From an uncultured Candidatus Saccharibacteria bacterium (lineage in GTDB: Bacteria; Patescibacteriota; Minisyncoccia; UBA6257; 2-01-FULL-56-20): DNA of 64,000 bases. The stretch lies in NCBI GenBank assembly GCA_964365185.1, contig CAYIOP010000002.1, positions 66,684 through 130,683 of the forward strand. The letters are read 5' to 3'. Made by a program: the position numbers and the translations under genes. The notes below the pieces were generated by a model. It made no database searches. It was not told where the DNA came from and was given only the letters and a program-made list of their open reading frames with translations. The stretch's first letter is position 1, and the number at the start of each line of letters is the position of its first letter. Below are positions 10,598-40,927 of this stretch, in pieces.

Positions 10598-10613
10598 TTT
10601 TTTTGTCTATTCC

Positions 10614-11096
10614 TTAGAGATTTCTAATCTTCGCAATAACTTCTGTTGTTGACTTGCCTTTTGTAAGCGGCACTCTAACTAGTTTCGCGCCAATTTCTTT
10701 TAAGGTTGCTCGTTCGACAATTTGACTGGTTTTTCTATCCGCTCCTTTTACGTGAATGCTGGGTTTTATTAATTTCAGCCATTTCTCCGGCGTCCTATCT
10801 TTGAATATAAAAACATAATCCACCGCTCTTAAAGCCGCCACCACTTCCGCGCGTTCCGCTTGAGATACAATTGGCCGGCCCCTGCCTTTATTTTCCCGAA
10901 CCGAACTATCCGAGTTAACTCCCACAATTAAAACATCGCCGAAGCTTCCGGCTTTTTCTAAGTTTCTAACATGACCGATGTGTAAAATGTCAAAGCAGCC
11001 ATTGGTCGTTACTATTTTCTTGCCGGCTCGGCGCTTTCTTCTCGCTATCTTAGCGACCTCAGCCAAAGTTTTTATTTTTGATTTTGCGGCTTCCAT
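10614..11096 (-). CDS. hldC: D-beta-D-heptose 1-phosphate adenylyltransferase (stand-alone HldE domain II)
   Basis: KKIVTTNGCFDILHIGHVRNLEKA cytidylyltransferase HxGH motif and ...IHVKGAD end as in RfaE domain II. 160 aa. Confidence 0.7.
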   Translation of the reverse strand: MEAAKSKIKTLAEVAKIARRKRRAGKKIVTTNGCFDILHIGHVRNLEKAGSFGDVLIVGVNSDSSVRENKGRGRPIVSQAERAEVVAALRAVDYVFIFKDRTPEKWLKLIKPSIHVKGADRKTSQIVERATLKEIGAKLVRVPLTKGKSTTEVIAKIRNL

Positions 11097-11146
11097 AATT
11101 CCTTTTTTTGACTTAAGCTATTATATGTTAATTCAAGTCAAGGTTC

Positions 11147-11731
11147 ATGACTAGACCCGATAACTCACAGCTTATTTTAAATGCCTTTAAACGACACCTC
11201 GAAACAGTTAGTCGTTCCGAGGCCACGGTTTTAAATGAGGTCTCAAAAGCTTTCGCGATTCTTGAAGAGATTGTTAAAAATCGCCGCGTTCTTTTTATCT
11301 GTGGCAATGGTGGTTCGGCCGCGCAAAGCCAACACTTTGCTGCTGAATGGGTCTGTCGCTATAAAAAAGAAAGGCCAGCCCTTAAAGCCATTGCCCTAAC
11401 CACCGACACCTCGGCCCTAACCGCCATCGGCAATGACTATGGTTTTGAAAATATCTTTGCCCGCCAAGTTGAGGCCCTAGCCTCTAAAGACGACTGCCTG
11501 GTTGTTATTTCAACCAGCGGCCGGTCGCCTAATATCTTAAAAGCCATTGATAAAGCCAAAACCATTGGGTTAAAAACCATTGCTTTAAGCGGCCAAAAAG
11601 GCGCGGCGCTTAAAAATCTGGTTGATGTCGCTATCTTAGTTCCATCCGATGAGACCGCCCGCATCCAAGAAGTTCACGATTTAATTCTACATGCTTGGTG
11701 CGAGGCGATTGATGAAAATTTCACCTCTTAA
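11147..11731 (+). CDS. gmhA: D-sedoheptulose 7-phosphate isomerase
   Basis: LFICGNGGSAAQSQHFAAEW is the canonical GmhA SIS motif. 194 aa. Confidence 0.8.
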   Translation: MTRPDNSQLILNAFKRHLETVSRSEATVLNEVSKAFAILEEIVKNRRVLFICGNGGSAAQSQHFAAEWVCRYKKERPALKAIALTTDTSALTAIGNDYGFENIFARQVEALASKDDCLVVISTSGRSPNILKAIDKAKTIGLKTIALSGQKGAALKNLVDVAILVPSDETARIQEVHDLILHAWCEAIDENFTS

Positions 11732-11740
11732 TTTTTATTT

Positions 11741-12709
11741 ATGGATATTTTAAAAACCATCAAGGAGTTTAATCAGAAGAAAATTCTAGTGGTCGGCGAC
11801 ATTATGTTAGACCATTATTTAAAAGGCGGTGTTTCTCGCATTTCGCCCGAAGCGCCTGTGCCAGTATTGGCGAAATCTTCCGAAAGTTATGCCTTGGGCG
11901 GCGCCGGCAATGTGGCCGCTAATATCGCTTCTTTAAAAGGCCGGGTTACTCTTTTAGGCGTTACCGGCGATGATCCCGAGTCAGGAATTATCAAAAAAAT
12001 TTGCGCTGGCCTAAAAATAACTCCGCGGCTTATCATTGAAAAGAAAAGGCCCACCACCCTTAAAACCCGGGTTGTCTCCGGCCGCCATCAACTTTTAAGA
12101 ATCGACACCGAAACCACTGCCCGCCCCAAAACCCAAACCGAAAATGAACTTATTAAAACCATTAACCGCTTACCCAATTTTAATATTATTGTAATTTCCG
12201 ATTATGCCAAAGGTTGCTTAACTAAGAAAGTTTTTACGGCGCTTAAAAATCGTTTTAAAAATGTTCAAATTATCGCGGATATAAAACCATCTCAAGCCAA
12301 TCTCTACTCAAATGTTTTCCTAATTACACCCAATCTTAAAGAAACTTACGACTTAACCGGTTTAAACGCCCAAGAACCTAAGTCAGCTGAAAAATCCGCT
12401 AAACTTTTATCCGACCGTTTTTCTTCTTCGGTTATTATCACTCGCGGAGAGCACGGGCTCACGCTCTACGAAAAAGAAACAAAAAAAATCACCCATATCC
12501 CGTCGCATACTATCCATATTTTTGACGTAACCGGCGCCGGAGATACTGTTGTTGCCGTTTTAGCTTTGATGGTTGCTTTAGGCGAAGACCTTAAAATTTC
12601 TGCCCGAGTGGCCAATTTGGCCGCTGGTCTGGTTGTGAGCGAAGAGGGAACCGCCACTCTCTCTCCGCAAGTTTTAATCGCTGCTCTTAAAAATCGCCGT
12701 GTTTTCTAA
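11741..12709 (+). CDS. hldA: D-beta-D-heptose 7-phosphate kinase (stand-alone HldE domain I)
   Basis: ILVVGDIMLDHYLKGGVSRISPEAPVPVL is the RfaE domain I ribokinase-like signature. C-terminal DVTGAGD motif. Confidence 0.8.
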   Translation: MDILKTIKEFNQKKILVVGDIMLDHYLKGGVSRISPEAPVPVLAKSSESYALGGAGNVAANIASLKGRVTLLGVTGDDPESGIIKKICAGLKITPRLIIEKKRPTTLKTRVVSGRHQLLRIDTETTARPKTQTENELIKTINRLPNFNIIVISDYAKGCLTKKVFTALKNRFKNVQIIADIKPSQANLYSNVFLITPNLKETYDLTGLNAQEPKSAEKSAKLLSDRFSSSVIITRGEHGLTLYEKETKKITHIPSHTIHIFDVTGAGDTVVAVLALMVALGEDLKISARVANLAAGLVVSEEGTATLSPQVLIAALKNRRVF

Positions 12710-15023
12710 TTTCCTTAAACATTTCATCAAAGTTAGATTTGTCGGTTTTCTCCGGTCCCTCTTTTTATTTTTAATCAACCCACGGACTAATCAAAAAAAT
12801 TGGGAGGAGCGCCTGCTTCTTATCAATCTTCAAGGCATCGGCGATCTTGTTGTTTTTACTTCGGTCTTGAAACATTATCACCAAGCTTTCCCTAGTAAAA
12901 AAATCTATCTTCTTATTAAAGAAGACACTGGTCTTAAAAAAGCGTTATCCGCAGTCGGGCAATGCGAAGTTATCACTCTTAACTATCGTCGCTTCACCAC
13001 CGACCCTTTTTATGGTTTTTCTCTAATTTCAAAATTGAAGCAGATTGGTTTTGAAACTGTTTTAAATCATGATTTCAGCGCCGCCGAAATTATGGGTAAA
13101 TTTATCGCCGTCGGGCTTGGCGCTAAACAAGTTATCGGTTATGAGGGCATGGCTCTTGAATTTATCGCGCCCTTTAATCTTCAGCAACGTCTCAATATCC
13201 GCTACGCAATCAATCATCTTTTTCCCAGATTCACCGATCTTATCCCGCGCATTGATTATCGGTACGATCTTTTAGAGCGACTCCCAGGAGCAATTAGTCA
13301 TTACCTTGCTATCTTTGAGCACGCCTCTAAGCGAAAAGAAAATGACTATTCAACTTTTTTGCCATCTCCTTCGTCGCTTGAAAATCTCAATCTTCGTCTG
13401 CCTCCAAAACCCTACGCGGTTTTTAATCTTTCTGCTTCTAATACCTACAAACGTTGGCCTATAGAAAATTTCGCGGGCCTAGCCCAAAGCCTAAAAGCCA
13501 AAAACTTTGAAATTGTTTTAATTGGTCTAACTGAAAGCCAAAATCTGGGCCAGGAGTTTAAAAATAATTTCTCCGGAGAAGTTTTTAATTTAATCGGGCA
13601 AACGTCTTTAAACGATTTGATTTATGTTATTAGTCATTCATCCCTGGTTGTCTCAAACGACACTTCTTCCGTTCACATTGCCGTGGCGCTAAAAAAATCA
13701 TCTCTTTGCTTAACGGGTGGCGGGCAGTTTGGGATGTTTGCCGATTACGGCTATCAAAATTTAAACCATTGGGTTTATAAAAAAACCAATTGCTTCTGCG
13801 ATAATTGGCGCTGCGGAAAAAATCTTGAAAATCAGTCCGCGCCTTGTGTCTCCGCCATCACTCTTGATGAAGCCGAGCAAAAATTACAATCACTTCTCTC
13901 TGAAATTCAAAATCCCAATCCCGATTCTTTTTTGTTTAAAACCAGTTTTGCCCCGCCGCCGGTTAAAAGCGGAAAATTTAAAATTATTTTTTCAGGGATT
14001 CAATTCGAGAATTATAACTTTGGACGAAAAAGTTTTGAATATAGCAACTTTCTTTTGACCCTAAGAGCTATGCCCAATTTGGAAGCGTTGTTCTATCCTT
14101 TTGATTTTATTCTTCAAATGGGAAAAAAGAAATTCAACGAACGCCTGCTCGATTTAGTTCGGCGCGAAAAACCCGACCTTTTTTTCGCGTTTATGTATAC
14201 CGATGAACTGGATGTAAAAACGCTCTCTGAAATTAAAAAATTAACTAAGAGTGTTGCTTGGTTTGCCGACGATCACTGGCGACTTGATAACTATTCCCGT
14301 CTCTACGCTCCTTATTTTACTAAAGCGATTACAACCTGGAGTAAAGGTATCGAAAATTATAAACGCTACGGCATTGAGAACATCCTTCGCTCGCAGTGGG
14401 CGTGCAATCACTTTGTTTGGCATCCCGCCGCAGTTTCTAATCAGGATATCGATGTTAGTTTTGTGGGGCAGTATAATCCGGCTCGCGGGGAAATTATAAG
14501 AAAACTTCGGTCTTTAGGCGTTAATGTTTGGGTTCGTGGTTGGGGTTGGCCCGAAGGCCGCCTCCAGGGTGGCGACATGGTTCAGGCCTTTAGTCAGAGC
14601 AAAATTAACCTCAATTTTAACACGCCGCCTAGCCGCTTAACGCCTAAATTATTAGCCCGCCTTTTCTTTAGGCGTTCTCTAAATAGAATTCGTCCGAGCT
14701 GGCGCTTCGCCAGTAATTTTCGCTCCTGGCTTAATATTTCTATCCCTCAAATCAAAGCCCGCCCTTTTGAAGTTGTCGGCTGCCAGGCCTTTCTTATATC
14801 AGCTTTTGCCGATGATGTTCACAGTTACTATGAAGATAAGAAAGAAATTGTCTATTACCGCGATATTCCCGACTTGGTTCAAAAAATCCAGTTCTATCTT
14901 AAAAATCCTGAACTTAGAAAAAAAATCGCTGAAGACGGATACAGGCGCACTCTCAAAGAACATACCTATACAAAAAGATTCACTGAAATTTTTGAAAAAG
15001 TCGGATTTAAATACCACGCCTAA
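12699..15023 (+). CDS. two-domain glycosyltransferase: N-terminal GT9 heptosyltransferase fused to C-terminal CgeB-like (DUF3880/GT1-like) domain
   Basis: N-terminal ERLLLINLQGIGDLVVFTSVLKHY and LVVSNDTSSVHIAVAL are GT9 hallmarks. The C-terminal region (VWVRGWGWPEGRLQGGDMVQAFSQSKINLNFN ... KEHTYTKRFTEIF) resembles CgeB-family glycosyltransferases. The only in-frame start is GTG at 12699, overlapping the hldA stop. Confidence 0.6.
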   Translation: MFSNFLKHFIKVRFVGFLRSLFLFLINPRTNQKNWEERLLLINLQGIGDLVVFTSVLKHYHQAFPSKKIYLLIKEDTGLKKALSAVGQCEVITLNYRRFTTDPFYGFSLISKLKQIGFETVLNHDFSAAEIMGKFIAVGLGAKQVIGYEGMALEFIAPFNLQQRLNIRYAINHLFPRFTDLIPRIDYRYDLLERLPGAISHYLAIFEHASKRKENDYSTFLPSPSSLENLNLRLPPKPYAVFNLSASNTYKRWPIENFAGLAQSLKAKNFEIVLIGLTESQNLGQEFKNNFSGEVFNLIGQTSLNDLIYVISHSSLVVSNDTSSVHIAVALKKSSLCLTGGGQFGMFADYGYQNLNHWVYKKTNCFCDNWRCGKNLENQSAPCVSAITLDEAEQKLQSLLSEIQNPNPDSFLFKTSFAPPPVKSGKFKIIFSGIQFENYNFGRKSFEYSNFLLTLRAMPNLEALFYPFDFILQMGKKKFNERLLDLVRREKPDLFFAFMYTDELDVKTLSEIKKLTKSVAWFADDHWRLDNYSRLYAPYFTKAITTWSKGIENYKRYGIENILRSQWACNHFVWHPAAVSNQDIDVSFVGQYNPARGEIIRKLRSLGVNVWVRGWGWPEGRLQGGDMVQAFSQSKINLNFNTPPSRLTPKLLARLFFRRSLNRIRPSWRFASNFRSWLNISIPQIKARPFEVVGCQAFLISAFADDVHSYYEDKKEIVYYRDIPDLVQKIQFYLKNPELRKKIAEDGYRRTLKEHTYTKRFTEIFEKVGFKYHA

Positions 15024-16031
15024 ATGATTTCTAAACTCGTCTCAATTATTATTCCGGCTTGGAACGCTGAAAAATATATTAAAGAAGCGATTGATTCAGC
15101 CCTAAATCAAACCCATCCCAATACAGAAGTGATTGTTGTAAACGACGGCTCAACCGATGGAACTGAATCAATTCTGAAATCTTATCAAAATCCCAAGCTT
15201 CGCTATTTTAATCAAGAGAATCAAGGTTTGGCTGGAGCTAGAAATACTGGCATCAAAAATTCTCAAGGTGAGTATATTGCCCTTCTAGACAGCGATGATA
15301 TTTTTCTGCCGAGCAAAGTCGAGCGCCAAGCCGAAATTTTAGAAGATAATCCCGACTACGGCATTTGCTATTCCGACCTTCTGCACTTTAACGACCCGCC
15401 TGACCCAGCCCGCTTCGAGTCGCGAAGCGAATCTGGCGGGTCGCCTAGTGGAACATGGCGGGCAGGCGAAAGCCACAGAAAATTTTTTCATCACCGCTAC
15501 CGCTATCCATCTGGCGATATTTTTGGTGAGATTATTCATCGGCAATTCATTAATCCTTTAGCTGTGATGATTCGCCGCGGAATCTTCAATCAGTTTGGGC
15601 TCTTTGACCAAAATCTCCGGCGCTCCGAGGACTGGGAGCTTTGGTTGCGTTTAGCCAAAAATGGAGTTAAATTTTATTACTTAAACGAAGTTTTAGCCCA
15701 CTATCGCGTCCGCTCGATTGGCAACTTAAGTTCTCTAGAATCCGAGCCGGAAATGAAAGAAAAAAATCTGGAAATTTTCACTCGCCTTGCGGCATCTTTA
15801 ACTTTGCTTCAAAAAAAGCAATACCGTTTCTATAAAATTTTAAAAAAGTTAAGATTAAAAGTGGTCTTTGCCAGCTTAATTGTCGGCGACCGAAAAAAAG
15901 CGCTTTTCTTTGTTCGAGAACTTTCCCCCTCTTGGAAATTTTTAGTCAGTGTTTTACCGGTTGCCTTCTGGAAATTTTTTCTTAGATTCATAAGAAAAAT
16001 CAAACATCGTCTTCTGCTAAAAAAAATGTAA
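15024..16031 (+). CDS. glycosyltransferase family 2
   Basis: VSIIIPAWNAEKYIKEAIDSALNQTHPNTEVIVVNDGSTDGT and LDSDD motifs. It contains a GC-rich in-frame segment around 15395-15500 (see findings). Confidence 0.75.
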   Translation: MISKLVSIIIPAWNAEKYIKEAIDSALNQTHPNTEVIVVNDGSTDGTESILKSYQNPKLRYFNQENQGLAGARNTGIKNSQGEYIALLDSDDIFLPSKVERQAEILEDNPDYGICYSDLLHFNDPPDPARFESRSESGGSPSGTWRAGESHRKFFHHRYRYPSGDIFGEIIHRQFINPLAVMIRRGIFNQFGLFDQNLRRSEDWELWLRLAKNGVKFYYLNEVLAHYRVRSIGNLSSLESEPEMKEKNLEIFTRLAASLTLLQKKQYRFYKILKKLRLKVVFASLIVGDRKKALFFVRELSPSWKFLVSVLPVAFWKFFLRFIRKIKHRLLLKKM

Positions 16032-16041
16032 TATTCTTCTA

Positions 16042-17019
16042 ATGCACCACCTCCTTTCGCTTAAAAACCAAACCCGAGAAGAACTTAAAGCAATTTTAGA
16101 TTTAGCCGGAAAAATCAAACAAGAGTACCGTCTTAAAAAACTTACTCCTTATCTGGCTGGTCAAACTCTAATTATGCTTTTTCAAAAGACCTCCACGCGC
16201 ACCCGACTTTCTTTTGAAGCCGGAATGACCGAACTTGGCGGGCATGCCATCTTTCTCGACTCTCGTACCACTCAGCTCGGCTTGTCGGATTTTGCTGATG
16301 AAATCCGAGCGATTATGAGAATGGGGGATATTTTGATGTTTCGGGCCTTGCGGGCCGCGGATGTCGAACTCGCCGCCTCAATGAATGTTATTCCTGTTAT
16401 TGATGCTTGTAGCGAAAAATATCATCCCTGCCAAGCTCTGGGCGATATTCTGACAATGTCTGAAATAGCTGGGGGGTTGGATAAAATCCGTAAAGTTGTT
16501 TGGTTGGGAATCGAAAATAATGTCTCCAATACCTTAATGCTCGCTTGCGCCAAACTCGGCATCGAAATTTTCATTGTTGCTCCCGAAAGGCATGCGGCCA
16601 GTCGCGATGAGGAACTTATTAGTCAAGCTGAAAGCACTGGTAAAGTTCATCGCACTTTGGATTTAGAATTCGCTCTTGATGGAGCTGATTTTGTGCATAC
16701 GGATACCTGGATGGATATGGAATTTTTTTCCACCGAAGGTGGATCGGCCTCTGGCGGGGAAAATAGCCAGGTTCGTCCGGAATTTAAACAAGAATACGAG
16801 CGCCGGATAAAAATTTTTTCTCCTTTTCAACTTAACCAAAAACTATTGCTTAAATACGCTCCTCGAGCAAAAATTATGCATTGTATGCCTTGCCACATTG
16901 GCTATGAAATTACCAGAGACGCCATAGACAGTCCTAATTCAGTAATTTTTGATCAAGCCGAAAATCGCAAGCATATCCAAAAAGGAATTCTCCTTTGGCT
17001 TCTCGGTCGTAGCCGTTAA
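16042..17019 (+). CDS. aspartate/ornithine carbamoyltransferase-family protein (OTC-like)
   Basis: STRTRLSFEAGMTELGG carbamoyl-phosphate binding motif, HCMPCH (compare the OTC HCLPA motif) and a VIFDQAENRKH C-terminal block. It carries an inserted EGGSASGGEN peptide. Confidence 0.6.
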   Translation: MHHLLSLKNQTREELKAILDLAGKIKQEYRLKKLTPYLAGQTLIMLFQKTSTRTRLSFEAGMTELGGHAIFLDSRTTQLGLSDFADEIRAIMRMGDILMFRALRAADVELAASMNVIPVIDACSEKYHPCQALGDILTMSEIAGGLDKIRKVVWLGIENNVSNTLMLACAKLGIEIFIVAPERHAASRDEELISQAESTGKVHRTLDLEFALDGADFVHTDTWMDMEFFSTEGGSASGGENSQVRPEFKQEYERRIKIFSPFQLNQKLLLKYAPRAKIMHCMPCHIGYEITRDAIDSPNSVIFDQAENRKHIQKGILLWLLGRSR

Positions 17020-17064
17020 CGCTTTTGTTATTCTTCGAAATTCTTTATTCTTAATTCTAACCGT

Positions 17065-18879
17065 ATGAATATTTTAGGTATATCGGCTTTTTATCACGAC
17101 AGCGCCGCTTGTTTAGTCAAGGACGGCAAAATTTTAGCCGCTGCTCAGGAAGAAAGGTTTACCAGAAAAAAACATGATGCTCGGTTTCCTAAACATGCTG
17201 TCGCATATTGTTTGGAATCTCAAAGTTTAGATATAAAAAATATCGATTATGTCGCCTTTTATGAAAAACCATTCCTAAAATTTGAACGTCTACTCGAGAC
17301 CTATCTCGCTTTTGCTCCCAAGGGATTTACATCCTTTATTCAAGCCATGCCAATTTGGTTGAAGGAAAAGCTTTGGATGAAATCCTATCTATCTAAGGAG
17401 TTGGGTTTTAATGGAAAAATTATTTTTCCCGAACATCATCAATCTCATGCCGCCTCCGCTTTCTATCCCTCACCTTTTAAACAAGCCGCGTTTCTTACCG
17501 CTGATGGAGTTGGCGAGTGGTCAACGACTAGTTACGGTGTTGGTTCCGGAAGTAAACTCAAAATGATCGCCGACATCAAATTTCCTCATTCTTTAGGTAT
17601 GCTCTATTCCGCTTTTACTTACTATACGGGTTTCAAAGTTAATTCCGGCGAATATAAAGTTATGGGGCTCGCTCCTTATGGTCGCCCCGAATACAAAAAT
17701 AGAATTTTTGAAAATTTAATTGATCTTAAAGAAGATGGTTCTTTCAGTATGAATATGGAATATTTTAACTACTGCACCGGGCTTACTATGACTAGTAAAA
17801 AATTTGACCAACTTTTCGGCGGCCCTCCTCGGAAGCCCGAATCACCCCTTACTCAAAAAGAAATGGACCTTGCCCGCTCCATCCAAGAAGTTGCCGAAGA
17901 AGTTATGTTAAGGATGGCTCGCCATATTCGTAAAGAAACAGGAGAAAAGTATCTTTGTTTAGCCGGCGGGGTGGCTCTAAATTGTGTTGCCAACGGGAAA
18001 ATTCTGGATGAAAAGATCTTCGATGATATTTGGATTCAGCCCGCCTCTGGTGATGCCGGTGGCGCCTTAGGCGCTGCTCTTGTTGTTTGGCACGAATATT
18101 TGCAAAAACCTAAACTAACCCCTGAAGGTCAAGATTTAATGGGGGGTGCCTATCTTGGTCCAAGTTTTAGCCCAAAAGACATCGAAATTTATCTTCAGGA
18201 AAATAAAATTCCTTACACCGAGTACCTAACCGATCAATTAATCAATAAGGTCTCCGATTTATTGGGCAACGAAAAGGTTATCGGCTGGTTTCAGGGGAAA
18301 ATGGAATTTGGTCCAAGGGCCTTGGGTAATCGATCAATTATTGGGGATGCCCGCTCTCCAAAAATGCAGGAAGTCATGAATTTAAAAATAAAATTCCGGG
18401 AAAGTTTCCGGCCTTTTGCTCCTTCAGTCATAATTGAAAAGGTCTCTGAGTGGTTTGAAACTAACCACGAAAGTCCTTACATGCTTTTAGTTGCTAACGT
18501 CAAAAAAGAAAAAAGAAAATCTGCTCCTGGCGAAGAAAAGCTTTTTGGCATCGAGCGCCTCAAAGTGCTCCGGTCAGAAATTCCAGCTGTTACCCACGTT
18601 GATTTTTCAGCTCGGCTCCAAACAGTTCACAAAGAAACCAATCCGCTTTACCACCAACTCATCGCGGCTTTTGATAAAAAATTTAACTGCCCGGTTATTG
18701 TTAACACTTCTTTCAATGTGAGAGGCGAGCCGATCGTCTGTACCCCCGAGGACGCCTACCGCTGTTTTATGAGAACCAATATCGATTACCTCGTTTTAGG
18801 TAATTTTCTAATCGATAAAAAAGATCAACCCAAAAACAATCAGAACGACGATTGGAAAAAAGAATTTGAGCTTGATTAA
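17065..18879 (+). CDS. NodU/CmcH/TobZ-family carbamoyltransferase
   Basis: MNILGISAFYHDSAACLVKDGKILAAAQEERFTRKKHDARFPKHA is the diagnostic N-terminal (Kae1/YgjD-like) signature of carbamoyl-phosphate-dependent O-carbamoyltransferases. 604 aa, the usual length. Confidence 0.8.
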   Translation: MNILGISAFYHDSAACLVKDGKILAAAQEERFTRKKHDARFPKHAVAYCLESQSLDIKNIDYVAFYEKPFLKFERLLETYLAFAPKGFTSFIQAMPIWLKEKLWMKSYLSKELGFNGKIIFPEHHQSHAASAFYPSPFKQAAFLTADGVGEWSTTSYGVGSGSKLKMIADIKFPHSLGMLYSAFTYYTGFKVNSGEYKVMGLAPYGRPEYKNRIFENLIDLKEDGSFSMNMEYFNYCTGLTMTSKKFDQLFGGPPRKPESPLTQKEMDLARSIQEVAEEVMLRMARHIRKETGEKYLCLAGGVALNCVANGKILDEKIFDDIWIQPASGDAGGALGAALVVWHEYLQKPKLTPEGQDLMGGAYLGPSFSPKDIEIYLQENKIPYTEYLTDQLINKVSDLLGNEKVIGWFQGKMEFGPRALGNRSIIGDARSPKMQEVMNLKIKFRESFRPFAPSVIIEKVSEWFETNHESPYMLLVANVKKEKRKSAPGEEKLFGIERLKVLRSEIPAVTHVDFSARLQTVHKETNPLYHQLIAAFDKKFNCPVIVNTSFNVRGEPIVCTPEDAYRCFMRTNIDYLVLGNFLIDKKDQPKNNQNDDWKKEFELD

Positions 18880-19297
18880 AATGCTGTCTAAAGAAATAAA
18901 AAATATTAGTAGCACCAAGAAAGACCTCCGCAATTTCAGTTTAGTTATCGGCGGAGTTTTAGTTGTCCTTAGTTTATGGTGGCTAACTCACCAGCGATCA
19001 AGCTGGTTATGGCCTGCCCTTTTAGGATTACTAATTATTGCCGCCGGCTTTATTGTTCCATCTTTACTAAAACCCCTTCAGAAGACCTGGATGATTCTAG
19101 CGGTTCTAATGGGTTGGATTATGACTAAGGTTATACTTTTTATTGCCTTCTTTATGATTTTTATGCCCATCAACTTGATATTAAAAATTCTAAAAAAGAA
19201 AATTTTCGATTTCGGCATAAAATCAGATCAAAAAAGTTACTGGATTCCTCGCGACCAGCCAGAATTTTCAAAGGCCAGTCTCGAGAAACAATTTTAA
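18866..19297 (+). CDS. SxtJ-like small membrane protein
   Basis: 143 aa with 3 transmembrane segments, immediately downstream of and overlapping the carbamoyltransferase. The carbamoyltransferase, SxtJ, DUF5989 trio is a recurrent arrangement. Confidence 0.4.
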   Translation: MSLIKMLSKEIKNISSTKKDLRNFSLVIGGVLVVLSLWWLTHQRSSWLWPALLGLLIIAAGFIVPSLLKPLQKTWMILAVLMGWIMTKVILFIAFFMIFMPINLILKILKKKIFDFGIKSDQKSYWIPRDQPEFSKASLEKQF

Positions 19298-19299
19298 CA

Positions 19300-20529
19300 A
19301 TGAAAGAACTAAGCTTTAAAAAAAAGATTTTCTTCACAATTGTTATCATCTTATTCCTGCTTATCTTTGCCGAAATTATTGCCAGAGTAATTTTAAACAA
19401 CAACGGTTCAATTAGTATCAACGAGCGGAAGAATAAATTCGAACCCTATCAAAATAAGGCCTGGGCCGAGCAATATTTTAAAGACGAAGCTTTATGTGCC
19501 AAACAGAGAGATAATTTCAAAGCCACTACTAGTAGTTTTGCTCGGTATATTATTTACGACGTTGGCTATCCCGGTTGTGAGTCAGAAACTATTAATTACT
19601 TTGGCGGGAACAGAAGAAAAACCTGGAATCCCGAATACAATCCCGAAAAAACAAAGCCTAAAATTTATCACGTCGGATTTTTTGGCGGATCAACCACTCA
19701 GGGCGCGGGCGTCCCGGATGCTTTAACCATCCCCTCTTTTTTTTCTAAAATAGTGAATAAATCAACCAGTACTATTATTTATAATGTTGAAAATTTTGGT
19801 GTTTCTGGTTACACCTACACCCAGGCCATGGTCAAACTCATATTTCTTCTGAAAGAAGGAACCAAGTTTGATTATGTGATTTTCTACAACGGAGCCAACG
19901 ATATTGATAATGCTTATGAAGCTGGATTGGTTGGGGCAATTTATGGAGAGAAAACAGTTGAAAATCGTCTCTATGGAGGCCTTATCGGTCAAATCAAAGA
20001 AGTATTTAAAGACCAGATAGGTTCCTGTGGATTATGCCGTTTTGTTATCACCTTTTCCAGAAACACCCCGTTTCTTAAAGATCAACTAACTCCACTGTTG
20101 GTCAAGATTAGAAAGGTCTTACTTTTCAAGGAAGGAGCCAAGACGAGCGAGGAATCGCTTGACCATTTCGCTCAAGGTATCGCTGATAACTACATTCAAT
20201 CTCATAAATTTTTAGATCACCTTTCAAACGCTTACGGCTTCAAGTACCTCGATTTTTGGCAACCCTCGCTTCAGTATGAAGACGGTCCGGTCGGAGGAGA
20301 AAAAATATATTGGAATATTGACAATCGTCTCACTGATGAAAAACTCAAAGCACTTTACCGTCTAACTCTAGAAGATGTAATCTCCGCCAACCTTAATAAT
20401 TTTTATGACTTATCTCAATCTCTTGCCGGCAGAAAAAAAGCTTATTATCTCGATGCCGTCCATATTAGTGATGAAGGTAATGAAGCTGTCGCTAAAAAAA
20501 TCTCTGATATATTTGAAAAAAGGTTCTAG
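19300..20529 (+). CDS. SGNH/GDSL-type hydrolase with N-terminal membrane anchor
   Basis: Block I YHVGFFGGSTTQG, block III FYNGANDI and block V DAVHISDEG match the SGNH hydrolase catalytic motifs. An N-terminal transmembrane segment is present. Confidence 0.55.
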   Translation: MKELSFKKKIFFTIVIILFLLIFAEIIARVILNNNGSISINERKNKFEPYQNKAWAEQYFKDEALCAKQRDNFKATTSSFARYIIYDVGYPGCESETINYFGGNRRKTWNPEYNPEKTKPKIYHVGFFGGSTTQGAGVPDALTIPSFFSKIVNKSTSTIIYNVENFGVSGYTYTQAMVKLIFLLKEGTKFDYVIFYNGANDIDNAYEAGLVGAIYGEKTVENRLYGGLIGQIKEVFKDQIGSCGLCRFVITFSRNTPFLKDQLTPLLVKIRKVLLFKEGAKTSEESLDHFAQGIADNYIQSHKFLDHLSNAYGFKYLDFWQPSLQYEDGPVGGEKIYWNIDNRLTDEKLKALYRLTLEDVISANLNNFYDLSQSLAGRKKAYYLDAVHISDEGNEAVAKKISDIFEKRF

Positions 20530-20548
20530 GTATTGTAAGATTTTTTAA

Positions 20549-20707
20549 ATGAATAAACTCGGCATTCTTAAAGAATTTTGGGATTTTTTAAAGTCTCGTC
20601 GAAAATGGTGGATTTTCATTGTTGCCTTTTTCTTGATCTTGATAGCAAGTTTTGTTTTCCTCTCTCAAGGTTCTGTTGTTGCGCCTTTCATCTACACCAT
20701 CTTTTAA
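20549..20707 (+). CDS. DUF5989-family small membrane protein (not in the supplied ORF track, 52 aa)
   Basis: Translation MNKLGILKEFWDFLKSRRKWWIFIVAFFLILIASFVFLSQGSVVAPFIYTIF matches the DUF5989 consensus (EFW.FLK.RKKWW, APFIY.LF) found beside carbamoyltransferase/SxtJ genes. The listed ORF 20578-20787 is an out-of-frame overlap. Confidence 0.6.
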   Translation: MNKLGILKEFWDFLKSRRKWWIFIVAFFLILIASFVFLSQGSVVAPFIYTIF

Positions 20708-20713
20708 CTGAGC

Positions 20714-21817
20714 ATGAAAAAAGTACTCATCACCGGAGGGGCCGGATTCATCGGCAGCCATACCGCCGATGCCCTAAAAAAACTTAGGTATAAAATAAAA
20801 ATCCTCGACAATCTCGCCCCACCCACCCATAAGACACCAAAATGGCCCGCCTATGTTTTAGGCAAGGGCTATGAACTTATTAAGGGCGATGTCTGCGATC
20901 GCCGGGTTGTATCGAGAGCCCTCCAAGGAGTTGATTTTATCTTTCATTTCGCGGCCTACCAAGACCAAAGGAATGACTTCTCTCATTTTTTTAAAATTAA
21001 TACCTTAAGTTCCGCCTTGCTCTATGAGCTTATCACTGAGAAAAAATTCCCGGTTAAAAAAATAATTCTGGCTAGCACTCAGTTTGTTTATGGCGATGGC
21101 AAATATTTATGTTCCCGCTCTAAAAAAGAATTTTTTCCCGAACCCCGCGCTTTGTCGGCACTAAAAAAAGGGGACTGGTCTATTAAATGTCCCAACGGCC
21201 ACCCTGCCACTTTTTTGAAATTTGAAGAAGATCAAAAACTCACCCCCACCAATTCCTACGGTCTCTCCAAGCAAGCCATGGAAAATTTGGCTCTTCGCTT
21301 TGGCAAAACCCATGGCCTTTCCACTACCATCCTTCGTTATTCTATAGTCCAGGGTCCACGACAATCTCCGCATAATCTTTATTCCGGCGCTATGCGGATT
21401 TTTGTAAGCCAAGCCCTGGCCAGCGTTCCACTGACTGTTTATGAAGATGGCCTAGAAACCAGAGATTTTGTAAATATTGAAGATGTCGTCCGAGCCAATC
21501 TCCTTACCCTTAAAAACCCAAAAACAAATTTTCAGATATTGAATGTTGGCGGTGGTCGCGGCTATCGAGTGATTGATTTTGCCAAACTTATTAAAAAAAT
21601 TAGCCGCTCCTCTTCGTCGATTCTAGTCGGCTCTTTCCGTCGTACTGATACTCGCCACGCCGTCTCTGATATCTCTAAAATAAAAAAATTGGGCTGGTCT
21701 CCCCGACGTGGAATTGATTATTCAATTAAAACTTATCTTGAGTGGTTTACTGATAATGGTTTCGATAAAAAACTTCATTCTCAAGACCTCGTTAAACTCC
21801 AAGAAGGCATAAAATAA
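20714..21817 (+). CDS. NAD-dependent epimerase/dehydratase-family protein with Cys-containing insertion
   Basis: MKKVLITGGAGFIGSH Rossmann motif and SDR fold. An insertion ...KYLCSRSKKEFF...WSIKCPNGHP... separates the YGDG and YxxxK regions. Confidence 0.55.
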   Translation: MKKVLITGGAGFIGSHTADALKKLRYKIKILDNLAPPTHKTPKWPAYVLGKGYELIKGDVCDRRVVSRALQGVDFIFHFAAYQDQRNDFSHFFKINTLSSALLYELITEKKFPVKKIILASTQFVYGDGKYLCSRSKKEFFPEPRALSALKKGDWSIKCPNGHPATFLKFEEDQKLTPTNSYGLSKQAMENLALRFGKTHGLSTTILRYSIVQGPRQSPHNLYSGAMRIFVSQALASVPLTVYEDGLETRDFVNIEDVVRANLLTLKNPKTNFQILNVGGGRGYRVIDFAKLIKKISRSSSSILVGSFRRTDTRHAVSDISKIKKLGWSPRRGIDYSIKTYLEWFTDNGFDKKLHSQDLVKLQEGIK

Positions 21818-21867
21818 TAAGCTAATTTTATTGACTTATTGGTCGGCTTGTTTTAATCTACCTAAAC

Positions 21868-22890
21868 ATGATTGTTGTTCGCGCTCCCTTAAGAATTAGC
21901 TTTGTTGGCGGCGGCACCGACCTCCCCGATTTTTATCATCAGCGTCCTGGCCGCGTTATTTCAACCGCCATCGACAAGTTTGTCTATGTGGTAGTCAATC
22001 GTACCCCCATGATCGATAAAGTCGTGGCGCGTTATTCTATTACTGAATCAGTCAGCCACCCCAGCGAACTCGAGCACACCCGCATCAAAGCTGCTCTAAC
22101 GGATTTGGGCATTCACAAAAATATTGAAATTTCTTCTTTCGCCACCATGCCCTCTAAAACTGGTCTTGGTTCCTCCTCCAGTTTTTCAGTGGCTTTAATC
22201 AAGGCCCTAAACGCTTTTCAAGGTAAAAAAATTGATGCTCGCGAAGCCGCTGAAGCTGCTAGTCGTCTTGAGATTGAATTGGTAGGTGAGCCTATTGGCA
22301 AACAAGATCAATACGCTGCTTCCTTAGGCGGTTTTAATGTGATTCAGTTTAATCCCGATGAATCAGTTGATGTCTCCCCGGTTTTAATTGATTATAAAAA
22401 ACGTTTGGCTTTAGAGAGTAGCATCCTTTTGTTTTTTACGGGCATCACTCGCTCTACTTCTTCGGTTCTAACCGAGCAAAAAGCCAATATCGACAGTAAG
22501 TTTGGGACTCTCTCTGAGATGGCGGATTCGGTTCCGGAATTTAGCAACCTTGTTCTTGAAGGCGATATTCCGGCTATGGGTGCCATGCTTCATCAGGGTT
22601 GGTTAAAGAAAAAAAGCTTAGCGTCTAATTTATCTAATTCTTTAATTGATGATCTTTATAATTCTGGAATTTCCTCTGGCGCTTATGGCGGCAAGATTTT
22701 GGGCGCTGGCGGCGGTGGCTGTATTCTATTTTTAAGCCCTCAGGATAAAAAAGATTCTATTCGCGAAGCAGTCAAAACCGTGGCCGAAAAAAATAATCTT
22801 GTCGGTTTTCGCGAGATTCCAGTTGAATTTGTTCAAAGTGGCGCCGAAGTTTTATATAACGGTGATCATTTCCATTCTCATTTTTCGTAA
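21868..22890 (+). CDS. hddA: D-glycero-alpha-D-manno-heptose 7-phosphate kinase (GHMP kinase)
   Basis: MIVVRAPLRISFVGGGTDLPDFY N-terminus is characteristic of HddA-type GHMP kinases, plus the GLGSSSS ATP-binding motif. Confidence 0.65.
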   Translation: MIVVRAPLRISFVGGGTDLPDFYHQRPGRVISTAIDKFVYVVVNRTPMIDKVVARYSITESVSHPSELEHTRIKAALTDLGIHKNIEISSFATMPSKTGLGSSSSFSVALIKALNAFQGKKIDAREAAEAASRLEIELVGEPIGKQDQYAASLGGFNVIQFNPDESVDVSPVLIDYKKRLALESSILLFFTGITRSTSSVLTEQKANIDSKFGTLSEMADSVPEFSNLVLEGDIPAMGAMLHQGWLKKKSLASNLSNSLIDDLYNSGISSGAYGGKILGAGGGGCILFLSPQDKKDSIREAVKTVAEKNNLVGFREIPVEFVQSGAEVLYNGDHFHSHFS

Positions 22891-22894
22891 AATT

Positions 22895-23500
22895 ATGAAA
22901 ACTCACATCGAAGATTTTAAAAACAAAGTTGATCTGGCTTTAAAAGCCCTGCCCACCGAAGAAATTGCCAAGGCCTTGAATATTCTGGAAGCTGTTTATG
23001 AACGGGATGGCCGCATCTATGTTTTTGGCAACGGCGGCTCTTTGGCCATCGCCACCCATTGGGTGAGCGATTTTAATAAAACCGTTTTCAGCCATCATTT
23101 AGATAAGCATCATCGTCGCTTTCAAGCTATTCGCGTGCCGACCACCGAGGAAGAATTAACCGCTTGGGCCAACGATGCTGGTTTTGATATGGTTTTTGCC
23201 GGCCCCCTTGAAAACTACTTGCAAGATCCGGATGTCGTAATTGCCATCTCTAGCTCCGGCGCTTCCCCGAATGTTATTAAAGCTGTCGAGCTTGCCCGAA
23301 GTCGCAAAGTTCCTGTTATTGGGATTTCTGGTTTTGGCTCTGATAATCAGTTAAATCAACTCGCCACCGTCAAGATTCATGTCCCGGCTGAAAAAGGGGA
23401 ATATGAAATTGTTGAAGGCGTTCACGGGATTATCCTGCATCTCATGACTAAATATTTCAAAGATTATTTCGATCACATAGTAGCCAAGTCAGAAAACTAA
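22895..23500 (+). CDS. gmhA: SIS-domain phosphoheptose isomerase (second GmhA paralog)
   Basis: YVFGNGGSLAIATHWVSDF SIS motif. ATG at 22895 is chosen because the listed ORF start at 22799 would overlap hddA. Confidence 0.6.
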   Translation: MKTHIEDFKNKVDLALKALPTEEIAKALNILEAVYERDGRIYVFGNGGSLAIATHWVSDFNKTVFSHHLDKHHRRFQAIRVPTTEEELTAWANDAGFDMVFAGPLENYLQDPDVVIAISSSGASPNVIKAVELARSRKVPVIGISGFGSDNQLNQLATVKIHVPAEKGEYEIVEGVHGIILHLMTKYFKDYFDHIVAKSEN

Positions 23501-24051
23501 TGAAAGCAGTTTTCTTAGATCGTGACGGGACTATTAATAAGGAAGTTAACCTCCTAAGAAATCTAAAACAGCTGAAAATCCTTCCCAAAGCCGCCGAAGC
23601 CATCAGGAAAATCAACCAACTTGGTTTTCTGGTGGTTGTGATTACTAATCAAGCTGTGGTGGCCCGCGGCTGGCTAACTGAAAAAGGCGTGGATGAAATT
23701 CACGCTGTTTTAATAAAGCGCCTGGCAAAAAAAGGCGCCAAAATTGATGCTATCTATTACTGCCCGCACCATCCCGAAGCTAATTTTAAAAAATATCGCG
23801 TTAAATGTCGCTGCCGCAAACCGAATCTTGGTATGATTTTAAAAGCCGCCAAAAAGTTCAAAATTAATTTTAAAAAAAGTTTTATGGTCGGCGACCACAC
23901 CCGCGACATTTTAACCGGCCATCGCGCTAGCCTCAAAACCATTTTAGTTAAAACTGGCTACGCTGGCAAAGATGGCTACCACGACATAAAGCCCGATTTC
24001 ACAGCCAAGAATCTTTTTGAAGCTGTAAAAATTATCAAACGTAATTCTTAA
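23500..24051 (+). CDS. gmhB: D-glycero-D-manno-heptose 1,7-bisphosphate phosphatase (HAD IIIA)
   Basis: VFLDRDGTIN HAD motif I and the GmhB zinc-binding C-x-H-x...C-x-C motif (YYCPHHPEANFKKYRVKCRCRKPNLGMI). Confidence 0.8.
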   Translation: MKAVFLDRDGTINKEVNLLRNLKQLKILPKAAEAIRKINQLGFLVVVITNQAVVARGWLTEKGVDEIHAVLIKRLAKKGAKIDAIYYCPHHPEANFKKYRVKCRCRKPNLGMILKAAKKFKINFKKSFMVGDHTRDILTGHRASLKTILVKTGYAGKDGYHDIKPDFTAKNLFEAVKIIKRNS

Positions 24052-24111
24052 TTCCTATTTCGTAATTCATAATTCGTCACTCATGATTCATAATTCATCA
24101 CTCATTAATCA
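24042..24111. repeat. heptamer-periodic array (TAATTCN units x about 10) spanning the gmhB stop and hddC start
   Basis: taattct taattcc tatttcg taattca taattcg tcactca tgattca taattca tcactca ttaatca. Confidence 0.6.
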
Positions 24112-24859
24112 AGCCATCCTTCTCTCCGCCGGCCTAGGCACTCGTCTCCGTGATATTACCAAAGGCGAAATTCCAAAAGTTATGGTCCCGCTTCTTGGTA
24201 AGCCGCTTTTGGAGTGGCACCTTGAGGCTTTCAAAAAATACGGCGTGAGTGATTTTTTCATCAATCTTCATTATCTCCCCGAAGTTATTAAAAATTATTT
24301 TGGCGACGGCTCTAAATGGGGAGTTAAAATTCAATACAATTTCGAACCAGAAATCATGGGTACCGCGGGCGGTATCAAAGGTTTCTCCGCTGAAGGCGGA
24401 TCCGCCTCTGGCGGAGAAAACCAGCTCGCTGATAATTTTTTTGTCATCTACGCCGACACCTTTTATCAAATCAATTATAATCGCATTGCCGACCTTTATT
24501 TTTCACTTGAAAACCCGATTGGTTTAGGCACTGTGAGAATCACCGATCACCCCGAGGATTCTGATTTGGCTATCGTCGGAGAAAACAACGAAGTCAAAGA
24601 ATTTCTAATTAAACCGCATAAAAAACTCCCCGAAAAAAGTTTTTATGGCACTTCTGCTCCCTATATCTTTTCCAAAAAAATTCTGGAATATATTCCAGAA
24701 AATAAATATTACGAAATTGATCATAATCTTGTGCCGGATCTCTTAGCTCGTGGCTTTAAATATTACGCTTATAAATTAAAAAGCGATGAATTCCGAAAAG
24801 ACATTGGCACTGCCGATCGCTACCATTTTGTTGAAAATTATCTGAAAAATTTAAAATAA
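24083..24859 (+). CDS. hddC: D-glycero-alpha-D-manno-heptose 1-phosphate guanylyltransferase-like sugar nucleotidyltransferase
   Basis: AILLSAGLGTRLRDIT nucleotidyltransferase motif and GTAGGI. Position after gmhB as in GDP-heptose clusters. It carries the inserted EGGSASGGEN peptide. Confidence 0.6.
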   Translation: MIHNSSLINQAILLSAGLGTRLRDITKGEIPKVMVPLLGKPLLEWHLEAFKKYGVSDFFINLHYLPEVIKNYFGDGSKWGVKIQYNFEPEIMGTAGGIKGFSAEGGSASGGENQLADNFFVIYADTFYQINYNRIADLYFSLENPIGLGTVRITDHPEDSDLAIVGENNEVKEFLIKPHKKLPEKSFYGTSAPYIFSKKILEYIPENKYYEIDHNLVPDLLARGFKYYAYKLKSDEFRKDIGTADRYHFVENYLKNLK

Positions 24860-24919
24860 AAAGGCCGATATGTGTTTTCACTCATCGGCCCCATTGAATT
24901 CGAATTGGGTCAGTTCCAG

Positions 24920-25669
24920 TTAACTTTCCCCTTCAAATGATTTGAGTAAATTCTCAATCCCGATTTGTTTCCAACTGGTAAATATCGGCATCGCTCCCGC
25001 ATCAACGAGTTTTGCCACCGTTTCCCCCTTGTAATTAACCGGCATTCCGACCGCTCTCGATTCAGCCGCTATCGCAGCTTGCACGCCCCTAGGAGAATCT
25101 TCAAAAACAAGCTGTTGTTTTGAAGGTATACCCATTCTCTCGGCTGTTAAGAGAAAAACCTCCGGGTGCGGCTTTAATTCTTTGACGTGACTATGAAGTA
25201 TTATGTTGGCGGGCCGGAATATTTTAGTCAACCCTGCCTTTTTAAGGATAAAATTAGCTTCATCTTCCCGTGTAAGAGAACCAATCGCTAATCCCAACCC
25301 CATATGTTCCAATTTATGGAAAATATCCAGAAATCCCGGACGAGGTTGAATTTCGGGAATTGCAAACAAACTTTCCCGATAGCCCGCAACGTCAAAATCT
25401 TCGATATCTTTGACAGAAAGATTCTTGTCGCTTAACTCAAAGATTTCCTCCGCTACCCTTCTATCGGGTCCTCCGATCGAATGAGGCAGAACTCTAAACA
25501 TTTCATCAAAATCCCCAATTTTAACTCCCGCTTTTTCGGCCGCCAGAATGTGTCCTTGCCAATGAAATTTTTCTAAATCCACCACCGTTCCCTCTAAATC
25601 AAAGGCAATTCCTAGAGTTGCTTGATTGTTCACATAAACTCCTTTCTTAAAATCTTTATTTCGTCGCAA
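24920..25669 (-). CDS. HAD-superfamily hydrolase (subfamily IA, beta-phosphoglucomutase-like)
   Basis: LGIAFDLEGTVVD motif I and downstream HAD motifs. Confidence 0.5.
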   Translation of the reverse strand: MRRNKDFKKGVYVNNQATLGIAFDLEGTVVDLEKFHWQGHILAAEKAGVKIGDFDEMFRVLPHSIGGPDRRVAEEIFELSDKNLSVKDIEDFDVAGYRESLFAIPEIQPRPGFLDIFHKLEHMGLGLAIGSLTREDEANFILKKAGLTKIFRPANIILHSHVKELKPHPEVFLLTAERMGIPSKQQLVFEDSPRGVQAAIAAESRAVGMPVNYKGETVAKLVDAGAMPIFTSWKQIGIENLLKSFEGES

Positions 25670-40473: not shown

Positions 40474-40716
40474 ATGAATGTAGTTACTATCCCCAAAAAA
40501 TTCTCCTCCAAAGACCTAGTGATTATTCCTCGAGAAGAATACGAGAAACTTTTAAAGCTCAAATCAATCCTGCCTTTTTTCAAACCCACCCGTGGCGAAC
40601 TTAAGGTCATTGCCCGCGGTCGTCGGGAAGTTGCTAAAGGCAAATATACTCCTTGGGGCGCAGTTAAAAATGAACTGGAAAATTTATCTAACCGATCACG
40701 CAAGAAAACAAGCTAG
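40474..40716 (+). CDS. putative antitoxin (Phd/YefM- or AbrB-like) of RelE module
   Basis: VVTIPKKFSSKDLVIIPREEYEKLL resembles antitoxin DNA-binding/neutralisation regions. It overlaps the relE start. Confidence 0.4.
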   Translation: MNVVTIPKKFSSKDLVIIPREEYEKLLKLKSILPFFKPTRGELKVIARGRREVAKGKYTPWGAVKNELENLSNRSRKKTS

Positions 40717-40927
40717 AAAAATTCCTGTTTTTGATCTTGCTAGGATCAATAAAACCATCGATAATCTAGAAATAAATCCATTCGCTGGCGATATTCAAAA
40801 ACTTGAAGGTGAAGAAAATGTCTGGCGACGTCGAATTGGGAACTATAGAATCACTTATGAAGTTATGATTAGTCAAAAGAAAGTTTTTATCTACGAAATT
40901 AAGAGGCGAACTTCATCAACTTATTAG
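40670..40927 (+). CDS. relE: RelE/ParE-family type II toxin
   Basis: MNWKIYLTDHARKQARKIP...FAGDIQKLEGEENVWRRRIGNYRITYEV...VFIYEIKRR matches the RelE/ParE consensus (W.I..t..A...l..l ... wRlRiGdYRiiYe). Confidence 0.65.
   Translation: MNWKIYLTDHARKQARKIPVFDLARINKTIDNLEINPFAGDIQKLEGEENVWRRRIGNYRITYEVMISQKKVFIYEIKRRTSSTY

Follow-up and report, generated by a model that had tools for sequence, protein, structure and literature searches.

O-carbamoyltransferases of the TobZ family consume carbamoyl phosphate and ATP to form carbamoyl-AMP, from which a hydroxyl group is then carbamoylated. The solved family members TobZ, GdmN, NovN and 7xb6 act on antibiotics in actinomycete pathways, and to our knowledge SxtJ or DUF5989 partners have been reported for none of them. 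In the cyanobacterial saxitoxin clusters, the genes sxtI, J, K and L, arranged in this order, code for a 612-amino-acid (aa) O-carbamoyltransferase, the 134-aa SxtJ, the 54-aa SxtK and the 426-aa GDSL lipase SxtL, a proposed decarbamoylase (PMC2679770); a function has been shown experimentally for none of SxtJ, SxtK and SxtL, and SxtJ and SxtK have no known function (PMC2679770, PMC2885083). Carbamoylation of a surface sugar is described in Pseudomonas, where the putative transferase WapO O-carbamoylates heptose II in the core of the lipopolysaccharide (LPS) (PMC8005017), and in Thermococcus kodakarensis, which has no carbamoyl phosphate synthetase, the ornithine carbamoyltransferase (OTC) ArcB is the source of carbamoyl phosphate for anabolic consumers (PMC13260591). 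Here we describe a block of five genes at positions 16042-20707 of a 64-kb stretch of DNA from an ultra-small, uncultured Candidatus Saccharibacteria bacterium of groundwater (hereafter the window, that is, the whole stretch that was analyzed), in which an OTC-like gene is joined to a module of the SxtI/J/K/L type; this is a variation on systems already described and does not amount to a system of a new kind.

The five genes are the following:
16042-17019, + strand: OTC-like gene (OTCL), 325 aa; Pfam OTCace_N 133.8 bits and OTCace 133.4 bits (cut-offs of about 30)
17065-18879, + strand: O-carbamoyltransferase of the NodU/CmcH/TobZ family, SxtI-like, 604 aa; Carbam_trans_N 348.5 bits, Carbam_trans_C 251.5 bits
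18866-19297, + strand: small membrane protein of the SxtJ family, 143 aa; Pfam SxtJ 28.1 bits (cut-off 24.4)
19300-20529, + strand: SGNH/GDSL hydrolase, 409 aa; Lipase_GDSL 33.5 bits (cut-off 23.6)
20549-20707, + strand: single-pass membrane peptide of the DUF5989 family, 52 aa; Pfam DUF5989 60.7 bits (cut-off 27)

All five identities had been proposed in a preliminary description of this DNA and are upheld by the profile matches (OTCace, Carbam_trans_N/C, SxtJ, Lipase_GDSL and DUF5989), including that of the short DUF5989 open reading frame (ORF); the motifs quoted there are also present, i.e., STRTR and HCMPCH in the OTC and ILGISAFYHDSAA...QEERF at the N-terminus of the transferase. The ORFs are co-directional and tightly packed, with intergenic gaps of -14 to 45 nucleotides (nt), and just 10 nt separate the OTC gene from the preceding glycosyltransferase gene of family GT2 (15024-16031). 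A scan for promoters and terminators across positions 10500-25500 yielded counts near those of shuffled sequence and found no clear intergenic signal, so that it supports no more than a tight co-directional block.

This block most probably represents a portable cassette of five genes for carbamoylation that was inserted into a locus for surface-glycan synthesis, with the OTC as the supplier of carbamoyl phosphate, a reading to which we assign a probability of about 0.55. Judging from the sequence and its neighborhoods, the role of the OTC is most plausibly the local supply of carbamoyl phosphate from citrulline. The enzyme would run phosphorolytically, converting citrulline and phosphate to ornithine and carbamoyl phosphate, and the latter would pass to the transferase, which with ATP would form carbamoyl-AMP and place the carbamoyl group on a sugar hydroxyl. 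The acceptor would probably be a residue of the glycan made by the surrounding genes, or its precursor, with heptose as an attractive candidate. The SxtJ and DUF5989 proteins would probably tether the transferase, itself soluble, to the membrane, and the SGNH hydrolase would probably trim or remove the carbamoyl (or an acyl) group.

The association of the OTC with the transferase recurs in Patescibacteria. We surveyed 80 loci of the OTCL clade from species-representative genomes (ORFs were clustered and the clusters named with NCBIfam; context was defined as within 10 kb), and a NodU-type transferase is part of the context in 5 of the 80; counted at a distance of about 4 kb from the OTC gene, the number is likewise 5. 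Additional adjacent cases came from context look-ups (L161, L164, L165, whose OTC is the same as that of L001, L169, L170 and L171), bringing the total, with the window included, to 11 distinct Patescibacteria OTC sequences or loci with 61-75% mutual identity. The flanks of the linked loci differ, consisting of the same heptose locus as in the window (L161, L164), Wzy, cupin and TylF genes (L165), GT10 (L169), RNase Y (L170) or GT4 (L171), and so do the gene orders, e.g., OTC-transferase-GDSL-SxtJ-DUF5989 in L171, transferase-DUF5989-SxtJ-SGNH-OTC in L041 and OTC-SGNH-SGNH-DUF5989-short ORF-transferase in L032. By our own conservative estimate, in which every 1-Mb genome has a single transferase gene at a random position, the 80 loci would be expected to give about 0.6 hits at distances of up to 4 kb, and 5 were observed (Poisson P of about 5e-4). 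The neighborhood census suggested in the preliminary description thus reveals linkage far above chance across diverged Patescibacteria. The origin of the linked OTCs was judged by best-hit comparison, the neighbor-joining tree being poorly resolved: the OTCs of L032, L041, L061 and L068 are nearest to pyr- or kinase-linked OTCs, which points to independent recruitments, and those of the window group are each other's best matches, so that the cassette-linked copies form no separate subfamily. The pattern looks like one older linkage and at least four independent recruitments of an OTC to the cassette.

A parallel in another lineage comes from the survey of metagenomes, which covered the 80 loci with the nearest transferase homologs, at least some of which belong to phyla other than Patescibacteria. 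In three of these loci (L117, L121 and L125; G+C content 0.30-0.34), a canonical OTC, with DVWASMGQE and HCLPAHRG motifs and a score of 425 bits against the OTC model TIGR00658, directly follows the transferase and SxtJ genes. In L117 (24-5541, on a metagenome contig of 30% G+C), the operon consists of an ArcE-like gene (439 aa), carbamate kinase, the transferase, SxtJ and the canonical OTC; L121 and L125 show the transferase-SxtJ-OTC portion only. The presence of a different OTC subfamily on the same module in an arginine-breakdown operon argues for carbamoyl phosphate supply and against a special acceptor of the OTC. The idea of local supply, one of the two roles considered for this gene in the preliminary description, fits both the recurrent linkage and this parallel.

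The genomic contexts of the OTCL clade, which includes some bins labeled as DPANN archaea, bear on the activity of the enzyme. Pyrimidine genes are found near the OTC gene in 39 of the 80 loci, most commonly in the arrangement pyrB-pyrI-pyrC-OTC-pyrD-pyrK-pyrE-pyrF, and examples of the variant OTC in pyr operons are L003, L004 (about 10001-10936), L009, L011, L020, L040, L060 and about 30 more. Carbamate kinase (arcC) is nearby in 16 loci, in some of them together with a class-III aminotransferase, argG in 6, carAB in 5 and a 440-aa ArcE-like protein in 5, and none of the listed contexts is seen in 21. The 440-aa protein shows a weak match to cobW (GTPase fold) and a match to cyclic 2,3-diphosphoglycerate synthetase (E 2e-8), which fits the published description of the arginine synthetase ArcE (PMC11032458), and we infer that it is ArcE. 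All these neighbors are concerned with carbamoyl phosphate, citrulline or ornithine, in that they produce, consume or flank them, and the clade accordingly has the behavior of a genuine OTC, in agreement with the supply of carbamoyl phosphate from citrulline by ArcB in the ArcE/ArcB/ArcC pathway of T. kodakarensis (PMC13260591); the likeness includes the adjacency of relatives of the window OTC to arcC and the ArcE-like gene. The differences are that the consumers in Thermococcus are pyrimidine synthesis and hydrogenase maturation and that the window OTC has a variant loop (see below). Since the variant OTC lies in pyr operons in 39 of the 80 loci while carAB is nearby in only 5, citrulline-derived carbamoyl phosphate may feed pyrimidine synthesis in those Patescibacteria and DPANN that have this arrangement. 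A literature search on Patescibacteria OTC and carbamoyl phosphate found no paper describing an OTC clade of Patescibacteria and DPANN embedded in pyrimidine operons, and this clade is the most useful by-product of the present analysis.

A number of observations weigh against the cassette reading. The OTC equilibrium favors citrulline synthesis, so phosphorolysis needs a pull. OTCL narrowly misses the equivalog threshold of TIGR00658 (277.4 bits against a cut-off of 280.85) and, likewise marginally, that of PRK00779 (288.1 against 306), which is attributable to its loop insert; the motif DxxxSMG, the signature of the ornithine-binding loop, is replaced in it by DTWMDMEF (residues 221-228) with a 20-aa insert. 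None of pyrB, carAB, argG, carbamate kinase, arginine deiminase and ArcE was found in the window, where the sole amino-acid-kinase fold is that of UMP kinase. No OTC is within reach of the Patescibacteria cassettes L166 (Liptonbacteria), L167 and L168, so the linkage is not obligatory, and none of the 80 metagenome transferase loci has a clade-type OTC; given that some of these loci come from other phyla, the latter count is no test of the linkage in Patescibacteria. Finally, transferases of different phyla are about 70% identical, as would suit a single conserved acceptor better than a glycan peculiar to each locus, and in many loci outside Patescibacteria, the trio of transferase, SxtJ and DUF5989 has no conserved sugar-synthesis neighbors.

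Part of this evidence would be expected if the OTC were a housekeeping enzyme of arginine or pyrimidine metabolism that came to lie beside the cassette by chance in small, shuffled genomes and is functionally uncoupled from it. The general clade with its pyr, arcC and argG contexts, the 21 loci without these contexts, which imply that the gene moves about, and the three Patescibacteria cassettes without an OTC are all compatible with such an origin. Chance, however, does not readily account for the recurrence of the adjacency with 11 distinct OTCs in varied gene orders and flanks, the at least four apparently independent recruitments, the excess over the expected number of hits and the fact that another lineage combines this module with a canonical OTC, and we consider the uncoupled enzyme rather unlikely. 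Of three signs that the preliminary description had listed as speaking against a dedicated role, two are indeed seen, i.e., the OTC clusters with OTCs of arc, arg and pyr operons, and the third, a lack of conserved linkage to NodU-type genes, proved false.

The sequence of OTCL is that of a variant of the canonical enzyme (ArgF/ArcB, TIGR00658). Both transcarbamylase domains are present, OTCace_N for binding of carbamoyl phosphate and OTCace for binding of the second substrate, and the closest solved structure is the OTC of Pyrococcus furiosus (1a1s, E 3e-61, about 40% similar). The two-domain fold, the carbamoyl-phosphate motifs STRTR (51-55) and HPxQ (HPCQ, 128-131), ENNV (158-161), the loop Asp, the catalytic Cys and the C-terminal ENR are retained, and the conserved Asn and Asp are those with which OTC contacts ornithine at its amino-acid end. 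Three conserved departures from the canonical enzyme are apparent: DTWM[D/N]MEFF plus the insert in place of DxxxSMG, where Asp and Met are kept, Ser is replaced by Asp or Asn and Gly by Glu; HCMP in place of HCLP (HCMPCH, 280-285, Leu to Met); and GIENNV in place of GDGNNV. Almost every one of the 120 database proteins nearest to OTCL (65-75% identity, for the most part labeled as Patescibacteria) shares these features and shows D-x-W-x-[D/N]-M-E at the substrate loop, and [D/N]MEF occupies the loop position in 72 of the 80 genome-locus relatives. OTCL and the OTC of L018 additionally contain a Gly/Ser-rich 10-aa insert (STEGGSASGG and SAEGGSASGG, respectively) after the substrate loop, at residues of about 230-240, beyond the clade-wide 10-aa insert. 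Assignment as a putrescine carbamoyltransferase was rejected (TIGR04384, 235.9 bits against a cut-off of 500).

The preliminary description had also considered that the OTC-like enzyme might itself N-carbamoylate an amino sugar; in a broader form of this idea, other amines of the glycan could serve as acceptors too, and the enzyme would work in parallel to the O-carbamoyltransferase. The change of the substrate loop with its 10-20 aa insertion, the HCMP variant and the presence of amino-sugar enzymes, namely a PglD-like acetyltransferase and two aminotransferases of the DegT type, among the products of the locus and of its continuation upstream would be in line with a different acceptor. The altered loop is, however, clade-wide and is shared by OTCs in pyrB-pyrI-pyrC-X-pyrD operons and by those next to arcC, argG, carAB or a gene for an ornithine-aminotransferase-like protein; moreover, the cassette-linked copies are not a distinct subfamily, and the independent parallel of the L117 type employs a canonical OTC. 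N-carbamoylation by this enzyme thus appears highly improbable, and OTCL is best classified, by its motifs and relatives, as a member of an ornithine carbamoyltransferase clade of Patescibacteria and DPANN with an altered substrate loop, that is, as the ordinary although sequence-variant OTC of this lineage.

The 604-aa protein is predicted over its full length to be an O-carbamoyltransferase of the TobZ/GdmN/NovN type, in accord with the NodU/TobZ-type assignment made earlier. It aligns with the solved carbamoyltransferases 7xb6 (residues 9-586), NovN (9s2t), GdmN (7vyj) and TobZ (3ven) with E-values of 1e-78 to 1e-91, both the Kae1-like and the YrdC-like halves being present. The conserved His/Asp motifs HHQSH (124-128), TADGVGE (145-151) and SGDAGG (328-333) are recognizable at the sequence level, and their residues (His-x3-His and two Asp) are presumably metal ligands, as in TobZ. 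Orthology with NodU itself was rejected (NF041651, 144 bits against a cut-off of 1000), so the protein is a member of the family only. A hydropathy scan found no hydrophobic segment in the transferase.

The other module proteins appear to be membrane-bound. The SxtJ protein, for which the start is probably ATG 18881 (138 aa, as in L161 and L164) and not TTG 18866, has hydrophobic segments at 21-42, 45-72 and 74-111; the three stretches previously noted are thus present, and the third is long enough for two helices. The DUF5989 peptide has a single hydrophobic segment (18-49), and the hydrolase has an N-terminal hydrophobic anchor (3-35) followed by the conserved SGNH blocks GGSTTQG (129-135), GVSGY (167-171), GANDI (198-202) and DAVH (385-388), which contain the catalytic Ser, Gly, Asn and Asp-x-x-His. 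A search of the PDB with the hydrolase found no useful solved relative. Given the soluble transferase, the three or four segments of SxtJ, the single segment of DUF5989 and the anchored hydrolase, a membrane-associated complex is likely.

The transferase, SxtJ and DUF5989 form a core trio that is conserved across many phyla. Among the 80 metagenome loci, an SxtJ homolog adjoins the transferase in 77, and DUF5989 accompanies both in 65, many of the loci that show no SxtJ or DUF5989 match being located on short contigs. The hydrolase is less readily traced: a search with the single window sequence detected it in only 2 of the 80 loci, and an iterative profile, which can drift but gave E-values mostly below 1e-50, showed that, of 18 long loci, 9 have a member of the SGNH family of the window protein no more than 6 kb from the transferase, and it also detected this family in the Patescibacteria cassettes L032, L041 and L061. 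By Pfam, a GDSL gene is also found within the cassettes of L161, L164, L165 and L171. In the Liptonbacteria cassette without an OTC (L166, 10669-14455), the transferase gene is separated from those for SxtJ and DUF5989 by two GDSL genes and one for a CN_hydrolase; the CN_hydrolase family includes N-carbamoyl amidases.

At the level of predicted protein families, the gene content of the module is that of sxtI-J-K-L, with lengths of 604, 143 (or 138), 52 and 409 aa in the window compared to 612, 134, 54 and 426 aa in the saxitoxin cluster. The DUF5989 peptide is likely to be the counterpart of SxtK by size and position only, and the hydrolase is likened to SxtL by Pfam family and neighborhood, not by sequence (PMC2679770). 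The two sets differ in gene order, which is transferase-SxtJ-hydrolase-DUF5989 in the window, in context (sugar polymer as opposed to alkaloid synthesis) and in the attachment of the OTC gene. The role of O-acyl editor previously suggested for the hydrolase is not compelling: an SGNH family does recur with the module, and the place of the protein is that of SxtL, the proposed decarbamoylase (PMC2679770).

The cassette is predicted to sit within a very large sugar-polymer locus that includes heptose genes. Its immediate surroundings are the following:
10614-11096, - strand: HldE adenylyltransferase domain; TIGR02199 176.9 bits
11147-11731: SIS/GmhA-like protein, in the upstream context of the cassette
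11741-12709: HldE kinase domain; TIGR02198 328.8 bits
12699-15023: GT9 heptosyltransferase fused to a GT1 domain, a 774-aa ORF
15024-16031: GT2, directly upstream of the OTC gene
20714-21817, + strand: NAD epimerase/dehydratase, downstream of the cassette
21868-22890, + strand: GHMP kinase (HddA-like)
22799-23500 (ORF as listed), + strand: second SIS protein
23500-24051, + strand: HAD phosphatase
24083-24859, + strand: nucleotidyltransferase

Farther upstream, the window contains a nucleotidyltransferase/dehydratase pair, a Wzy-like polymerase, three methyltransferases, more nucleotide-sugar genes and a GT8, and farther downstream, a GT2, a Wzx-type flippase, additional epimerases and an initiating transferase of the Bac_transf family. 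The gene order of 20714-24859 is the same in the relatives L161 and L164. Heptose genes thus surround the cassette, as had been proposed; all the heptose enzymes score below the NCBIfam equivalog cut-offs, so the pathway names are valid at the family level only.

With respect to the acceptor, most of the Patescibacteria cassettes examined lie amid glycosyltransferase or nucleotide-sugar genes, and those of the window, L161, L164 and L166 have heptose genes in common. The closest described counterpart in this respect is WapO (PA5005, the putative heptose II 7-O-carbamoyltransferase), a carbamoyltransferase of the same broad family that is encoded among heptose and glycosyltransferase genes and would account for the carbamoyl group seen on a heptose (PMC8005017); the likeness is by description, not by sequence, WapO belongs to the LPS core, and an OTC partner has not been reported for it. 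A separate consideration is that we know of no LPS production in Patescibacteria.

Alternatively, the cassette could carbamoylate a small molecule or lipid-linked precursor that is common to many phyla and not the glycan of the locus, with the OTC still supplying carbamoyl phosphate. Homologs with about 70% identity to the transferase are found in Liptonbacteria, Levybacteria, Ignavibacteriales, Brocadia, Nitrospirae, Omnitrophica and Bacteroidota, and this conservation, which is at odds with the lineage-specific modification system envisaged in the preliminary description, would be natural for a fixed acceptor; among the 85 transferase loci compared, no neighbor family other than the trio and the SGNH gene is present in more than 10, and the substrate of the homologous sxtI-J-K set is a small alkaloid. 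Against such an acceptor stand the location of most Patescibacteria cassettes inside glycosyltransferase and nucleotide-sugar loci (the short contig of L170 shows only RNase Y upstream) and the existence of a heptose-carbamoylating family member, WapO (PMC8005017). On balance, we regard a shared acceptor as unlikely, and a residue of the local glycan, or its precursor, is the probable acceptor in the cassette reading.

A further scheme, suggested by analogy with the O-acetylation of peptidoglycan and O-antigen, in which a membrane acyl-translocating protein works with an extracellular SGNH domain, is a transmembrane carbamoyl relay: the soluble transferase would activate the carbamoyl group on the cytoplasmic side, SxtJ and DUF5989 would pass it across the membrane and the anchored SGNH protein would transfer it to an external envelope polymer, with the OTC feeding the relay in Patescibacteria. 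We consider this scheme very doubtful; if true, it would also provide a function for SxtJ, SxtK and SxtL of the toxin clusters.

The genomes of Patescibacteria are tiny, these bacteria rely on partner organisms, and next to nothing has been described of the glycans on their surface. If the cassette reading is correct, a cell-surface polymer of these bacteria bears carbamoyl groups, with the carbamoyl donor derived from citrulline or arginine through a lineage-specific OTC and not from carbamoyl phosphate synthetase. The same OTC would then be the likely source of carbamoyl phosphate for the pyrimidine operons, linking both the synthesis of nucleotides and the decoration of the surface to an amino acid that is imported, and the 2026 finding on ArcB in Thermococcus would extend to bacteria and to a new consumer. 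The sxtJ, sxtK and sxtL companions of the saxitoxin carbamoyltransferase belong to a far more widespread and highly conserved module, and their function should accordingly be easier to study outside toxin producers.

Several features of the locus deserve mention in their own right. It contains two separate heptose-activation sets, one of the ADP-heptose type (10614-12709), in which HldE is split into two genes on opposite strands, and one composed of GHMP kinase, SIS, HAD and nucleotidyltransferase genes (21868-24859), which resembles the GDP-heptose route. In L161 and L164, GT9 (432 aa) and Glyco_trans_1_2 (345-349 aa) are encoded by separate genes with a methyltransferase gene between them, so the window ORF at 12699-15023 looks like a gene fusion accompanied by loss of the methyltransferase. 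The second SIS ORF, as listed, begins with TTG, codes for 233 aa and overlaps the preceding kinase gene by 92 nt; given that its relatives are 201-202 aa long, the real start is probably near 22890. The DNA immediately to the left of the window (L172, 1-10000) encodes two DegT aminotransferases, a PglD-like acetyltransferase, FdtA, dTDP-sugar isomerases and a NUDIX-acetyltransferase; the sugar locus thus continues for at least 10 kb beyond the window start, and the entire glycan region exceeds 45 kb.

According to the record names, the contig originates from the 0.1 µm fraction of Hainich groundwater well H43. Elsewhere in the window, the UMP kinase (54973-55716) is of the archaeal type, passing TIGR02076 with 183.8 bits and failing the bacterial model with 55.5 bits; a 554-aa ORF (50515-52179) has two ThyX (Thy1) matches and is roughly double the size typical of this thymidylate synthase; and a ParE-type toxin ORF (40592-40927) is located amid small unannotated ORFs in a region of low G+C content (0.34 at 40-42 kb).

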